From Escherichia coli (lineage in GTDB: Bacteria; Pseudomonadota; Gammaproteobacteria; Enterobacterales; Enterobacteriaceae), in NCBI RefSeq assembly GCF_024502345.1, contig NZ_JALDNN010000001.1: a stretch of DNA of 64,000 nt, one strand, 5' to 3'. Shown here in pieces: positions 32,443 through 63,251 of this stretch. A model generated the notes under the pieces. It ran no database searches. It was not told the origin of the DNA and was given only the letters and a program-made list of their open reading frames with translations. How positions within the stretch are numbered: the stretch's first letter is position 1; the number at the start of each line of letters is the position of its first letter. A program made the position numbers and the translations under genes.

Positions 32443-34779
32443 ATGAAGCAAATTCGTCTGCTGGCGCAGTATTATGTTGACCTGATGATGAAGTTAGGTC
32501 TGGTGCGCTTCTCAATGTTGCTGGCGCTGGCCCTCGTCGTTCTTGCCATTGTGGTACAAATGGCGGTAACCATGGTGCTGCATGGTCAGGTCGAAAGCAT
32601 TGATGTTATTCGTTCTATCTTCTTTGGTTTGCTGATTACGCCGTGGGCGGTCTACTTTCTATCGGTGGTCGTCGAGCAACTGGAGGAGTCACGACAACGT
32701 CTGTCACGGCTGGTGCAAAAACTGGAGGAGATGCGCGAGCGCGATTTGAGCCTCAACGTTCAGTTAAAAGATAATATTGCCCAGCTAAATCAGGAAATTG
32801 CCGTTCGTGAAAAAGCGGAAGCAGAACTGCAGGAAACCTTCGGCCAACTGAAAATTGAAATCAAAGAGCGCGAAGAGACACAAATTCAGCTCGAGCAGCA
32901 ATCCTCATTCTTACGTTCCTTCCTTGATGCTTCACCCGACCTGGTTTTTTATCGTAACGAAGATAAAGAGTTTTCCGGCTGTAACCGCGCGATGGAGCTG
33001 CTGACCGGAAAAAGCGAAAAACAACTGGTTCATCTGAAACCTGCTGATGTTTACTCACCGGAAGCCGCTGCGAAAGTCATTGAAACCGATGAAAAAGTGT
33101 TCCGTCATAATGTGTCACTGACCTATGAACAGTGGCTGGATTACCCGGACGGGCGCAAAGCCTGCTTTGAAATCCGTAAAGTGCCGTACTACGACCGCGT
33201 GGGTAAACGTCACGGTTTGATGGGCTTTGGTCGCGACATTACCGAGCGTAAGCGGTATCAGGATGCGCTTGAACGGGCCAGCCGCGACAAAACGACGTTT
33301 ATCTCCACCATCAGTCACGAATTGCGTACACCGCTGAACGGTATCGTCGGCCTGAGCCGCATTCTGCTGGATACCGAACTCACCGCCGAGCAGGAAAAAT
33401 ATCTCAAAACTATCCATGTTTCGGCCGTCACGCTGGGGAATATCTTTAACGATATTATCGACATGGATAAGATGGAACGGCGCAAGGTCCAGCTTGATAA
33501 TCAGCCGGTTGATTTCACCAGCTTCCTTGCCGATCTGGAAAATCTCTCCGCATTGCAGGCGCAACAAAAAGGATTGCGCTTTAACCTGGAGCCTACGCTG
33601 CCATTACCGCATCAGGTCATTACCGACGGGACGCGTTTACGGCAGATCCTGTGGAACCTCATCAGTAACGCCGTCAAATTCACCCAGCAAGGCCAGGTTA
33701 CCGTGCGCGTGCGCTACGATGAAGGCGATATGCTGCATTTTGAAGTGGAAGACTCTGGTATCGGCATTCCGCAGGATGAGCTGGATAAAATCTTCGCCAT
33801 GTATTACCAGGTGAAAGACAGTCATGGCGGTAAACCTGCCACCGGCACCGGTATTGGTCTGGCCGTTTCTCGTCGTCTGGCGAAAAATATGGGCGGCGAT
33901 ATTACGGTTACCAGCGAACAGGGCAAAGGTTCAACCTTTACGTTGACGATCCACGCACCGTCGGTGGCAGAAGAGGTCGATGATGCGTTTGATGAAGACG
34001 ATATGCCTTTACCGGCGCTGAATGTGCTACTGGTGGAAGACATTGAACTGAACGTGATTGTTGCGCGTTCTGTGCTGGAAAAATTAGGTAACAGCGTTGA
34101 TGTCGCCATGACCGGCAAGGCGGCGCTGGAGATGTTTAAACCGGGCGAATACGACCTGGTGTTGCTGGATATTCAGTTGCCAGATATGACCGGGCTGGAT
34201 ATCTCTCGTGAACTGACGAAGCGTTATCCGCGCGAGGATTTACCGCCGCTGGTGGCCTTAACCGCTAACGTGCTGAAAGACAAACAAGAGTACCTCAATG
34301 CTGGAATGGATGATGTGCTGAGTAAGCCGCTTTCTGTTCCGGCGCTAACCGCGATGATCAAGAAATTCTGGGATACCCAGGATGATGAGGAGAGTACGGT
34401 GACGACAGAAGAGAACAGTAAATCAGAAGCATTGCTCGATATTCCCATGCTGGAACAGTATCTCGAACTTGTAGGACCGAAGCTGATCACCGACGGGTTA
34501 GCGGTGTTTGAGAAGATGATGCCAGGCTATGTCAGCGTGCTGGAGTCGAATCTGACGGCGCAGGATAAAAAAGGCATTGTTGAGGAAGGACATAAAATTA
34601 AAGGTGCGGCGGGGTCAGTGGGGTTACGCCATCTGCAACAGCTGGGTCAGCAAATTCAGTCTCCTGACCTTCCTGCCTGGGAAGATAACGTCGGTGAATG
34701 GATTGAAGAGATGAAAGAAGAGTGGCGTCACGACGTAGAAGTGCTGAAAGCGTGGGTGGCAAAAGCCACTAAAAAATGA
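32443..34779 (+). CDS. arcB: aerobic respiration control sensor kinase ArcB
   Basis: ORF track 778 aa; two TM helices, PAS, HisKA/ATPase, receiver and HPt domains. Confidence 0.96.
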   Translation: MKQIRLLAQYYVDLMMKLGLVRFSMLLALALVVLAIVVQMAVTMVLHGQVESIDVIRSIFFGLLITPWAVYFLSVVVEQLEESRQRLSRLVQKLEEMRERDLSLNVQLKDNIAQLNQEIAVREKAEAELQETFGQLKIEIKEREETQIQLEQQSSFLRSFLDASPDLVFYRNEDKEFSGCNRAMELLTGKSEKQLVHLKPADVYSPEAAAKVIETDEKVFRHNVSLTYEQWLDYPDGRKACFEIRKVPYYDRVGKRHGLMGFGRDITERKRYQDALERASRDKTTFISTISHELRTPLNGIVGLSRILLDTELTAEQEKYLKTIHVSAVTLGNIFNDIIDMDKMERRKVQLDNQPVDFTSFLADLENLSALQAQQKGLRFNLEPTLPLPHQVITDGTRLRQILWNLISNAVKFTQQGQVTVRVRYDEGDMLHFEVEDSGIGIPQDELDKIFAMYYQVKDSHGGKPATGTGIGLAVSRRLAKNMGGDITVTSEQGKGSTFTLTIHAPSVAEEVDDAFDEDDMPLPALNVLLVEDIELNVIVARSVLEKLGNSVDVAMTGKAALEMFKPGEYDLVLLDIQLPDMTGLDISRELTKRYPREDLPPLVALTANVLKDKQEYLNAGMDDVLSKPLSVPALTAMIKKFWDTQDDEESTVTTEENSKSEALLDIPMLEQYLELVGPKLITDGLAVFEKMMPGYVSVLESNLTAQDKKGIVEEGHKIKGAAGSVGLRHLQQLGQQIQSPDLPAWEDNVGEWIEEMKEEWRHDVEVLKAWVAKATKK

Positions 34780-34891
34780 CCCCGGCTAGACCGGGGTGCG
34801 CGAATACTGCGCCAACACCAGGGAAATCTTGGCTGCGCCGTAAATTATTATGATGAGTTACAAGGGCACAGCACTGTTTTTCAGGCCGCAC
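34771..34891 (-). ncRNA. arcZ: ArcZ small regulatory RNA (SraH/RyhA)
   Basis: Minus strand reads GTGCGGCCTGAAAAACAGTGCTGTGCCC...GCGCAGTATTCGCGCACCCCGGTCTAGCCGGGGTCATTTTTT, matching ArcZ as I recall it; its terminator overlaps the arcB stop codon. Confidence 0.85.
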
Positions 34892-35008
34892 GCAGTTAAG
34901 ATAGCAAAACTTAAATGATTTGTTACATGAATCAGTTAAATGTGTGATGCGTACCATTTTTATTAAAAAAATTAATGTGTTTCAGTCAATTGCGAAAGGA
35001 TGATCACA

Positions 35009-35662
35009 ATGAAGAAAATTGGCGTAATTCTGAGCGGATGCGGCGTCTATGACGGTTCTGAAATTCATGAAGCGGTGTTGACGTTGTTAGCTATTTCACG
35101 CAGCGGTGCGCAGGCGGTCTGCTTTGCACCGGATAAGCAGCAGGTTGATGTTATCAACCATTTAACTGGCGAAGCGATGACGGAAACGCGCAACGTGCTG
35201 ATTGAAGCGGCACGAATAACGCGCGGTGAAATCCGTCCTCTGGCCCAGGCCGATGCCGCTGAACTGGATGCGTTGATTGTGCCGGGGGGGTTTGGCGCGG
35301 CGAAGAATTTAAGCAATTTTGCCACTCTTGGTAGCGAATGCACCGTTGACCGTGAATTAAAGGCGCTGGCACAAGCGATGCATCAGGCCGGAAAACCGCT
35401 TGGTTTTATGTGTATTGCCCCGGCGATGCTGCCGAAAATTTTCGATTTCCCGCTGCGTTTGACCATCGGTACTGATATCGATACCGCAGAAGTGCTGGAA
35501 GAGATGGGCGCGGAGCATGTGCCGTGTCCTGTCGATGATATCGTGGTTGATGAAGACAATAAGATTGTCACCACCCCAGCATATATGCTGGCGCAGAACA
35601 TTGCAGAAGCGGCGAGCGGCATTGATAAGCTGGTTTCCCGCGTGCTGGTTCTGGCTGAATGA
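35009..35662 (+). CDS. elbB: ElbB, DJ-1/PfpI family glyoxalase-like protein
   Basis: 217 aa from [21 protein letters not shown]... Confidence 0.9.
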
Positions 35663-36387
35663 GTAAAAGCCGCTTAACGGTGTTTAGTTTCGTTCGCCGT
35701 TTTCTTTTGCGGTTAATGGTTGTCCTCGCCGTTTTCTGGGGCGGGGGCATCGCGTTGTTTAGCGTTGCGCCTGTTCCCTTCTCAGCGGTAATGGTCGAGC
35801 GACAGGTCAGCGCCTGGCTGCATGGCAATTTTCGTTACGTGGCACATTCTGACTGGGTCAGTATGGATCAAATCTCGCCGTGGATGGGACTGGCGGTGAT
35901 TGCCGCAGAAGATCAGAAATTTCCTGAGCACTGGGGCTTTGATGTCGCTTCCATTGAGAAAGCCCTGGCGCACAATGAGCGCAATGAAAACCGTATTCGC
36001 GGTGCTTCAACGATTTCTCAACAGACAGCCAAAAATCTCTTTTTATGGGATGGGCGTAGCTGGGTTCGAAAAGGGCTGGAAGCCGGATTAACGCTGGGGA
36101 TAGAAACTGTCTGGAGCAAAAAGCGTATCCTGACGGTTTACCTGAATATCGCCGAATTTGGCGACGGTGTGTTTGGCGTCGAAGCTGCGGCACAACGTTA
36201 TTTCCACAAACCCGCGAGCAAACTTACCCGATCGGAAGCTGCCTTACTGGCAGCTGTATTACCTAATCCACTTCGTTTCAAAGTCTCCGCGCCATCGGGC
36301 TACGTGCGCAGCCGTCAGGCGTGGATTTTACGGCAGATGTATCAGTTAGGCGGTGAGCCGTTTATGCAACAACACCAGCTGGATTAA
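35659..36387 (+). CDS. mtgA: monofunctional peptidoglycan glycosyltransferase
   Basis: ORF track 242 aa; start overlaps the elbB stop. Confidence 0.93.
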
Positions 36388-37016
36388 GCTTCGCGCGAAG
36401 CGAGGGCCAGCGTTTTGCTCTCACGAGGTTGCAGATCTTTCTGCAGGGCAATAGCCAGCGCCGGTTGGGCGATAAATCGTTTCCACAACCGCTCTTGCTT
36501 ACGCAGACAACACCACTTTGACCAGGTCGCCAGTGGAATCAATGTGCTTTCACCAATGTTGTCGCAGACAACGGGGATAACCTCTGACTCACTAATGCGG
36601 TGACAGAGGATATTCTGCGGCTTCAGCGACATCGTCACGATACGGTTATCCTGCAAATAACACTTCAGATGTTTCAGTAACTGGCGCAGTTGTGCAACGT
36701 CTTCTTCGTAACGGCATTGTTCAGCAAATTCGGTCAGCGTAATGGAGGGCTTGCCGTCAAAATCGGCAATCACATCGTAGACATAACCGGTTCCGCAATC
36801 CGTCTCAACGGTACCGTGATAGCGCGGTATTCCACTCCAGTCTTTTAACCGGCGACCAAGATGCGCGTAGTACTTTAACTCACGACGGATCTCTTTATCG
36901 CCACCATCGCCACGATGGTAGACAATCTTGATACAGCGTTGGGCATCTTCCGGATGCGCATAACATTTCCGATGTCTTCCGGTGCCCAGGGGACTTTGTT
37001 CAGATAAGCGAATCAT
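36384..37016 (-). CDS. yrbL: YrbL, PhoP/PmrA-regulated protein
   Basis: ORF track 210 aa; its 3' end overlaps the mtgA 3' end by 4 bp. Confidence 0.88.
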
Positions 37017-63164: not shown

Positions 63165-63251
63165 GCCGAGGTGGTGGAATTGGTAGACACGCTACCTTGA
63201 GGTGGTAGTGCCCAATAGGGCTTACGGGTTCAAGTCCCGTCCTCGGTACCA
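63165..63251 (+). tRNA. leuU: tRNA-Leu, anticodon GAG
   Basis: 87 nt GCCGAGGTGGTGGAATTGGTAGACACGCTACCTTGAGGTGGTAG...GGTACCA with long variable arm and encoded CCA; 14 nt after secG. Confidence 0.95.

Follow-up and report, generated by a model that had tools for sequence, protein, structure and literature searches.

The window, a 64,000-nt stretch of Escherichia coli DNA, carries on its minus strand the gene for the small RNA ArcZ, which runs convergently toward the 3' end of the sensor kinase gene arcB, with elbB following arcB on the plus strand (Table 1). The product of the arcB reading frame matched the NCBIfam ArcB equivalog NF008302 over residues 1-778 with 1483 bits (cut-off 838). The spacer between arcB and elbB measures 229 bp, and arcZ is the only gene placed there on the opposite strand. 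Because arcB, elbB, and mtgA are each matched by equivalog models, gene order in this region can be taken to be that of E. coli K-12.

Table 1. Features of the arcB-arcZ-elbB locus, in window coordinates, with the basis of each assignment.
Feature	Position	Strand	Description and basis
arcB	32443..34779	+	778-aa hybrid sensor kinase of the ArcAB redox two-component system; convergent with arcZ
arcZ (SraH/RyhA)	34771..34891	-	121-nt primary transcript; Rfam RF00081 and K-12 b4450
arcZ/arcB CDS overlap	34771..34779	both	9 bp; sequence reading and K-12 annotation
Processed active 3' ArcZ	34771..34826	-	About 56 nt, boundary +/-1 nt, counted back from the 3' end
Rho-independent terminator stem-loop	about 34779..34797	-	ACCCCGGU-CUA-GCCGGGGU; terminator scan and folds
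Conserved seed/core CCCUGGUGUUGGCGCA	34808..34823	-	ArcZ nt 69-84; exact copy present
Candidate RNase E motif GA↓UUU	34824..34828	-	Consensus RN↓WUU; directly 5' of the seed; sequence reading
Extended -10 TGcTATCTT	34898..34906	-	-15 to -7; read relative to the annotated start site
Conserved upstream block CACACATTTAACTGATTCATGTAACAA	34920..34946	-	-55 to -29; conserved across Enterobacterales
elbB	35009..35662	+	Downstream neighbor on the arcB strand; NCBIfam ElbB equivalog, 357.6 bits; K-12 annotation

The Rfam covariance model RF00081 matched the minus strand at 34784..34891 with 120.8 bits (gathering score 66, E = 6.4e-28), and positions 1-106 of its 106 were covered without truncation. 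The model ends within the ArcZ terminator, and the last 13 nt, to 34771, finish the hairpin and the U-tract. An earlier note on this DNA had called for an alignment to annotated arcZ; when run, it returned no mismatch to the K-12 reference, and all 311 of 311 aligned bases between 34700 and 35010 were identical to those of E. coli K-12 MG1655, in keeping with that note's description of the locus as intact. The K-12 gene (b4450) is annotated at 3350577..3350697 (+), which corresponds to window 34891..34771; its start site is thus the G at 34891, and its 3' end lies at 34771 by annotation or at 34772 by published Term-seq (K-12 3350696). The identification as ArcZ, the minus strand, and both end coordinates given previously therefore agree with Rfam, the K-12 annotation, and Term-seq, and the convergent orientation relative to arcB is likewise that of the curated K-12 annotation, at 100% identity.

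Gene, promoter, and flanks are 100% identical between b4450 and the arcZ of the window, with no differences found; the two share the 121-nt length, a convergent arcB, a downstream elbB, and the 9-bp overlap, as well as the seed, the RNase E motif, and the terminator. Among complete E. coli genomes, 5416 of 5426 contain full-length arcZ, at an identity of at least 99% in 5395. There is no evidence against the identification, and the arcZ-arcB arrangement found here is a known, textbook arrangement that is intact. We are close to certain that the feature is the chromosomal arcZ of E. coli, in its K-12 allele, together with the account of promoter, processing, and feedback proposed below. Many RefSeq/PGAP records of E. 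coli leave arcZ unannotated.

The ArcZ terminator was the one site reported by a terminator scan of 34400..35100 (0.4 expected). Its stem comprises eight pairs, six of them G-C, closed by a loop of three and followed by the tail CATTTTTTAG; the U-tail after the stem at 34797..34779 reads CAUUUUUU. Across 48 distinct cross-species variants, 97.4% of cells paired in register, compared with 25-62% when the register was slid, a degree of pairing that 0 of 1000 shuffles reached. Stem pairs 6 and 7 each exchanged G-C for A-T, or the reverse, in 9 of the 48 variants, and the predicted stem is thus supported by compensatory changes across species.

How the terminator meets arcB can be read base by base. 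Within the overlap, the arcB strand reads AAA AAA TGA, that is, Lys777-Lys778-stop (TGA at 34777-79), and the ArcZ strand reads UCAUUUUUU, the spacer plus the U-tail of the Hfq-binding 3' end. Since the U-tract is templated by the arcB stop and the last two lysine codons, the two genes share 9 bp, the same overlap as in K-12, where arcB is annotated at 3350689..3353025 (-). The stem-loop proper (34780..34796) lies directly 3' of the arcB stop and so covers no arcB codons. The earlier note had placed the whole terminator over the last arcB codons: its span of 34771..34797 is correct for hairpin plus U-tract, and the spacer and U-tract do cross the stop and the Lys-Lys pair, but the hairpin falls outside the reading frame.

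Upstream of arcZ, the TTTGCTAT(C/G)TT portion of the extended -10 element is kept from Escherichia to Proteus and Photorhabdus; a consensus scan did not report the element because it falls below the 9-of-12 threshold. A sigma-70 promoter with this extended -10 would start the 121-nt minus-strand transcript at 34891. Farther upstream, the conserved block contains a -35-like GTAACA (34921..34926) and, on the opposite strand, TGTTA/GTTA-type motifs, and the block is a candidate site for regulator binding. Direct repeats in canonical ArcA sites have a spacing of 11 bp; the GTTA repeats of the block lie 13 bp apart. Phosphorylated ArcA is described as binding the arcZ promoter and repressing it (2024 ArcZ review); in an ArcA ChIP-seq study, no ArcA site appeared in the region preceding arcZ.

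When ArcZ is expressed (in aerobic and stationary-phase cells), how it is processed, its need for Hfq, and which targets it regulates are taken from literature on the identical K-12 sequence. On this basis, Hfq would bind ArcZ and RNase E would cut at GA↓UUU, a motif whose place in ArcZ is given in the 2024 review (citing Chao et al., 2017), leaving a stable 3' fragment of about 56 nt in which the seed CCCUGGUGUUGGCGCA would be exposed for pairing with many mRNAs in trans. The same review names the seed as highly conserved and the 56-nt active form as the RNase E product, with which the processed form of about 55 nt proposed in the earlier note agrees. From its 5' end, the processed form begins with the single-stranded seed, followed by a small stem-loop (GCGC/GCGC, 34798..34812), the hairpin of the terminator, and the U-tail. 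In the fold predicted for the 56-mer, bases 1-14 remain unpaired, and those bases are paired with the ArcZ 5' half in the predicted minimum free energy structure of the full-length RNA; since the seed is paired before the cut and free after it, both predicted structures are consistent with activation by cleavage. Processed ArcZ would then activate rpoS and repress flhDC, mutS, and other targets. When RNAduplex was run with processed ArcZ, or with the seed, on the K-12 rpoS leader (567 nt; -150..-61), the scores were no better than those of shuffles, which did at least as well in 188/500, 124/500, and 430/2000 cases, and the known rpoS pairing site was not recovered. Simple duplex energy is blind to this Hfq-dependent interaction, and the test is uninformative.

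To follow the layout across species, we ran an exact-match scan with a 20-base pattern anchored on CCCUGGUGUUGGCGCA over species representatives and located arcB by tblastn. Among the matches listed, 119 of 120 were Enterobacterales; the Marinimicrobium locus (L077), with no terminator and no arcB nearby, was set aside as a chance match to the pattern. A convergent arcB lay just downstream of the ArcZ core in 117 of the 120 listed loci. In 87 of these 117 arcB-linked loci, again among the matches listed, the overlap measured 9-11 nt, the arcB stop abutted the stem, and ArcB ended in -KK, a geometry that recurs in genera far removed from one another, namely Escherichia, Yersinia, Proteus, Edwardsiella, Erwinia, and Dickeya and that fits the published description of the overlap as "usually ... 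ten bases" (2024 ArcZ review). Wherever the overlap is present, the ArcB C-terminus is fixed as -KK. The overlap was absent from 20 of the 117 listed loci and only 1-2 nt long in another 8, among them Pantoea, Tatumella, Rosenbergiella, Pectobacterium, Brenneria, Hafnia, Pluralibacter, Morganella, and others, with the ArcZ core and terminator kept. The overlap is thus not needed for ArcZ to persist. Among the matches listed, then, the overlap of stop codon and terminator is common to most of the Enterobacterales sampled, with losses in several genera. These analyses establish what arcZ is, how it is placed and structured, and how it is conserved.

ArcZ and arcB mRNA stand in mutual negative regulation according to reviews (citing Mandin and Gottesman, 2010). 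With ArcAB repressing arcZ at low oxygen and ArcZ lowering arcB mRNA, a feedback loop would be closed. We infer that this cross-talk may be mediated by the physical overlap or by longer, read-through antisense transcripts. The earlier note went further in stating that the overlap lets ArcZ affect arcB mRNA. Mutual regulation is reported in reviews, but the mechanism was overstated: antisense pairing is "speculated" in the 2024 ArcZ review, and the loci with an absent or minimal overlap keep the ArcZ core.

The same loci bear on the reading that the 9-bp overlap is mere genome compaction, a shared terminator region without a regulatory role, with ArcZ acting on arcB indirectly or in trans and the -KK ending as a passive by-product of the U-tract. 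The overlap is just 9 nt long and sits in the weakly pairing, A-U-only U-tail, and ArcZ core and terminator remain intact where it has been lost or shortened. In most of those loci the ArcB C-terminus is not KK, so that ArcB does not need KK; the description of the antisense mechanism as speculative points the same way. Against compaction stand the retention of one geometry in 87 of the 117 listed loci over distant genera, the mutual negative regulation of both RNAs, and an abundant RNase III-dependent dsRNA cluster over arcZ, although the conserved geometry could also reflect inheritance and the cost of breaking either element. We consider a purely compacted overlap possible, if short of probable.

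Nine nucleotides of CDS are shared by ArcZ and arcB for certain, and any longer overlap hinges on where the arcB mRNA ends. A second reading, which we regard as somewhat unlikely, takes the antisense contact to be far longer than 9 nt, with arcB-strand transcripts reading through all of arcZ and ArcZ-strand transcripts reading into arcB until stopped by Rho; mutual repression would then rest on RNase III cleavage of long dsRNA, on transcriptional interference, or on both. Read-through of arcZ from the arcB strand would be expected because the hairpin lacks a U-tract on that strand: after it comes GUGCGCGAAU instead of a U-run, and hence no intrinsic terminator is predicted there. The dsRNA cluster S-273 captured with p19 (332 nt; U00096.2 3,348,440-3,348,771), which we placed in the window through an inferred offset, extends over the whole of arcZ plus the flank on each side and is reportedly backed by two earlier datasets; such a cluster implies that transcripts of both strands overlap there in vivo. 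For the ArcZ strand, the list of Adams et al. contains a region of Rho termination inside arcB at K-12 3351461 (window ~34007; Rho score 15.2, p = 9.7e-69). Pulling the other way, the antisense RNA within arcB may start from a promoter other than that of arcZ, the Term-seq tables for three conditions contain no arcB mRNA 3' end, and a hairpin at 34832..34872 followed by UGUUUUUC is a candidate arcB-strand terminator. The T-run of UGUUUUUC occurs only in Escherichia and Citrobacter, being absent from Salmonella, Enterobacter, and more distant genera, and intrinsic termination at this hairpin is a weak possibility.

Taken to its full extent, long contact would make the 9-bp overlap the visible part of a two-way read-through module, in which ArcZ-strand transcription reaches ~0.8 kb into arcB and RNase III cleavage of the dsRNA or polymerase collision, instead of pairing between the mature RNAs, underlies mutual repression. 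We think this unlikely. If it were true, the conserved Lys-Lys-stop of ArcB would be dictated by the U-tail of ArcZ, which serves terminator and Hfq binding, and not by ArcB function.

GadY of E. coli is a cis-encoded antisense sRNA lying opposite the gadX 3' UTR, and like ArcZ it binds Hfq and is encoded antisense to the 3' end of a gene for a regulator, with 3'-end complementarity invoked in both cases for altering the level of the neighboring mRNA. For GadY, the overlap with the gadX 3' UTR is longer, and pairing across it is the activity chiefly documented, with a positive effect on gadX mRNA. ArcZ differs in acting chiefly on trans targets, by means of a seed that has no relation to arcB, in overlapping its neighbor by only 9 nt of CDS, and in having a negative reported effect on arcB, for which pairing is a speculative mechanism. 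Both loci yield RNase III-dependent dsRNA in the p19 dataset, where the RyeA/SdsR (SraC/RyeB) pair, which overlaps on both strands as arcZ and arcB do, also gives an abundant RNase III-dependent cluster; RyeA and SdsR are two fully antisense sRNAs, one regulating the level of the other, whereas at arcZ the partner of the sRNA is the 3' end of an mRNA that encodes a protein. In its regulatory logic, ArcZ-ArcAB resembles OmrA/B-EnvZ-OmpR, in that a two-component system controls an sRNA that in turn lowers expression of that system. Loops of the OmrA/B type use an unlinked sRNA gene, and there the sRNA base-pairs within the 5' region of the mRNA for the regulator, whereas ArcZ is joined to the 3' end of the kinase gene.

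That the region instead encodes a small protein has next to no probability: a 62-codon ORF at 34769..34957 (-) does appear in the mechanical ORF list, but it begins at an ATG (34957) 66 nt ahead of the mapped start of arcZ transcription, so that ArcZ does not contain it, the 5' half varies by substitution and length between genera while the untranslated, structured 3' core is invariant, and both the covariance model match and the covariation within the hairpin indicate selection for RNA structure. With a start upstream of that of arcZ and a frame that is not conserved, the ORF was rejected as a gene.

For this chromosome, an intact arcZ indicates only an ordinary segment of E. coli DNA with a normal arcB-arcZ-elbB locus. 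The survey of the overlap and the hint, from published 3'-end, Rho, and dsRNA datasets, of an antisense contact longer than the annotated 9 bp go slightly past confirmation and leave the understanding of the system unchanged. Three sRNAs, ArcZ among them, activate the translation of RpoS, the general stress sigma factor, and ArcZ ties oxygen and redox sensing by ArcAB to the stress response, motility, and mutagenesis.

An ArcZ sRNA gene had been placed in the earlier note on the minus strand at 34771..34891, and this placement is exact. The Rfam ArcZ model RF00081, one of only three Rfam matches in the 64-kb window, matches 34784..34891(-) over 106/106 model positions (120.8 bits against a gathering score of 66, E 6e-28); the model ends within the terminator, whose remaining hairpin bases and U-tract make up the 13 nt down to 34771. 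Curated annotation of Escherichia coli K-12 MG1655 gives arcZ (b4450, "small regulatory RNA ArcZ") at 3350577..3350697(+) and arcB at 3350689..3353025(-), overlapping by 9 bp, which convert (K-12 = 3385468 - window) to 34891..34771(-) and 34779..32443, respectively. Alignment to annotated arcZ, proposed as a check in the earlier note, showed that 311/311 aligned bases of 34700-35010 are identical to K-12. The two ORFs after arcB encode ElbB and then MtgA, in the K-12 order. Judged by its model score, gene order, seed, terminator, overlap, and sequence match to the type allele, this is ArcZ proper in an intact locus; the earlier finding stands and was known before.

Coordinates of arcZ, its neighbors, and other features of the window
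Feature	Position	Strand	Details
arcB	32443..34779	+	778-codon ORF; NCBIfam ArcB equivalog full length, 1483 bits (cut-off 838)
arcZ	34771..34891	-	121 nt
Terminator stem	34797..34779	-	8 pairs (6 G-C), 3-nt loop, then CATTTTTTAG; terminator scan
Processed 3' form	34826..34771	-	last 56 nt of ArcZ
Extended -10, TGcTATCTT	34906..34898		upstream of start G at 34891
-35-like, GTAACA	34926..34921		upstream of start G at 34891
Conserved promoter block	34920..34946		-55 to -29
mtgA	35659..36387	+	
yrbL	36384..37016	-	
Enterobacteria greA leader, RF01769	56391..56512	+	127.5 bits (gathering score 60)
tRNA-Leu	63165..63251	+	anticodon GAG

The window is E. coli DNA. Of 5426 complete genomes of this species, 5416 carry the 121-nt arcZ at full length (at least 99% identity in 5395) and 10 have no match; one additional copy in this genome collection sits on a plasmid. 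In PGAP-annotated E. coli genomes (RefSeq records H1-H45 and L002), only arcB is given beneath the arcZ match. The L002 record has no arcZ feature, and of the records examined only the curated one for K-12 annotates arcZ. The annotated start of elbB is at 35009, and its ORF contains another in-frame ATG three codons before that, at 35000 (35000..35011). The window's second convergent pair is mtgA and yrbL, with a 4-bp overlap (36384..36387); in published Term-seq, a 3' end on the yrbL strand maps to K-12 3349181 (window ~36287), some 100 nt inside mtgA in antisense.

A terminator scan of 34400..35100, where chance would give 0.4 sites, returned one. The plus-strand sequence of 34771..34779 is AAA AAA TGA, the final two Lys codons and stop of arcB, and the core stem-loop CCCCGGCTAGACCGGGG lies at 34780..34796, just beyond the arcB reading frame. 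The span given in the earlier note for the ArcZ hairpin and U-tract thus holds, but only 9 nt of it (a 3-nt spacer plus the U-tract) fall inside the arcB frame, with the hairpin outside. The dominant ArcZ 3' end in published Term-seq data is K-12 3350696 (window 34772), one base before the annotated end.

The arrangement was surveyed with one exact-pattern scan for CCCTGGTGTTGGCGCANNNNNNGCGC in species-representative genomes, which yielded at least 120 loci. The matches listed span many Enterobacterales genera, including Escherichia, Salmonella, Yersinia, Serratia, Proteus, Photorhabdus, Edwardsiella, Erwinia, and Dickeya; one match, in Marinimicrobium, was rejected as chance, the only such case among those listed. 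A convergent ArcB C-terminus homologue lies just downstream of the core in 117 of the 120 listed loci, and in two of the remaining three the flanking DNA was too short for an arcB call. Among these 117 listed loci, the arcZ/arcB overlap is 9-11 nt in 87, where the stop complement (TCA/TTA) abuts the stem and ArcB ends in -KK, 1-2 nt in eight, and absent in 20 (gap of at most 184 nt, largest in Pectobacterium), with two odd cases. The -KK end is not independent evidence, because codons opposite the U-tract must be AAA. Among the matches listed, the overlap geometry is maintained in distantly related genera and lost in Pantoea, Tatumella, Rosenbergiella, Mixta, Pectobacterium, Brenneria, Pluralibacter, Morganella, and Chimaeribacter, where the ArcB C-terminus is usually not -KK. 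Because ArcB usually ends otherwise where the overlap is lost, these sequences suggest that the ArcZ terminator, and not ArcB function, sets the terminal dipeptide of ArcB. A 2024 review of ArcZ agrees with the survey, describing the overlap as usually about ten bases and absent in Pectobacterium.

Individual loci depart from these patterns. In Pantoea sp. 1.19 (L042) the arcB stop falls within the ArcZ terminator loop, an apparent 23-nt overlap, and in an uncultured Enterobacteriaceae MAG (L092) an apparent arcB-frame ORF extends through the entire ArcZ core. In two Pectobacterium loci (L053, L072), one from Brenneria (L101), and several from Pantoea, the arcB stop lies 3-184 nt from the terminator and a TCA plus T-run still follows the ArcZ stem, apparently a remnant of where the stop codon lay ancestrally.

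The terminator stem lies outside the search pattern and is unpaired in the Rfam consensus. Among the matches listed it occurs in 48 distinct variants, in which standard pairs fill 97.4% of cells in register, vs. 25-62% with one arm slid by 1-2 nt; no shuffle in 1000 reached the observed pairing. Exchanges of G-C for A-T or the reverse occur at pairs 6 and 7, in nine of these variants each, counts that overstate independent events since the variants are related by descent. Covariation of the stem is clear.

According to the review, Hfq binds ArcZ and RNase E cuts it to a 56-nt form, the active regulator, which activates rpoS translation and represses other targets; the literature on processing and regulation concerns this exact sequence. 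The last 56 nt, taken as the processed form, start directly after GA|UUU, a match to the RN|WUU consensus that the review gives for RNase E. The predicted 56-mer fold leaves its first 14 nt single-stranded, most of the seed CCCUGGUGUUGGCGCA among them, whereas the minimum-energy structure of the full-length RNA pairs these bases with the 5' half. This in-silico indication agrees with published proposals that the seed is released by cleavage.

A generic promoter scan reported nothing at arcZ, where the promoter has 8/12 consensus matches, under the scan threshold. The promoter block CACACATTT..TGTAACAA..TTTGCTATCTT is kept from Escherichia to Proteus and Photorhabdus; within the RNA, the 5' half changes fast among genera. 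GTTA motifs in the block are spaced 13 bp; canonical ArcA spacing is 11 bp. The review reports that ArcZ expression is highest in aerobic stationary phase and that ArcA-P binds the arcZ promoter and represses under low oxygen. An ArcA ChIP-seq study identified no binding site upstream of arcZ, a result that does not fit direct binding. In Yersinia aldovae (L003) the block is missing from the 130 nt that precede the ArcZ core, and unrelated sequence, which may be an insertion, stands in its place.

The earlier note also held that the arrangement lets ArcZ transcription and processing affect arcB mRNA. Reviews do describe negative regulation running both ways between the two transcripts; the antisense mechanism, with arcB mRNA destabilizing ArcZ, is "speculated" in the 2024 review. 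For this reason, and because ArcA ChIP-seq finds no arcZ site, we regard the mechanism as a plausible hypothesis and not as established fact.

How far the transcripts meet depends on where each one ends. On the arcB strand, the hairpin past the stop codon precedes GUGCGCGAAU instead of a U-run, and no intrinsic terminator is predicted there. A second hairpin, the mirror of the ArcZ 5' stem, is followed by UGUUUUUC (about 34876-34883) and could act as a terminator; its T-run is limited to Escherichia and Citrobacter. The arcB mRNA 3' end is absent from published Term-seq lists for three conditions. Bidirectional read-through could make the antisense overlap longer than 9 bp, as a rival to or extension of the short contact. 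One hint is a 332-nt, p19-captured, RNase III-dependent dsRNA cluster labeled arcZ (U00096.2 coordinates), which at an inferred offset of about 1978 bp spans all of arcZ and both flanks (~50 nt of arcB on one side, ~160 nt ahead of the arcZ start on the other). Another is a region of Rho termination that Adams et al. (2021, supplementary file 2) list within arcB on the ArcZ strand, at K-12 3351461 (~window 34007, minus strand; Rho score 15.2, p = 9.7e-69); it could reflect transcription past the ArcZ terminator or an independent antisense RNA. Since neither dataset identifies the origin of its transcripts, we consider the longer overlap rather unlikely.

The 9-nt U-tail is the only guaranteed cis overlap, and in this, and in being mainly trans-acting, ArcZ differs from its closest comparators: GadY, a cis-encoded 3'-end antisense sRNA; RyeA/SdsR, an overlapping pair; and OmrA/B with EnvZ-OmpR, an sRNA/two-component-system feedback loop. 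If true, long bidirectional read-through together with a terminator-constrained ArcB C-terminus would refine only modestly what is known of a system already studied in depth.
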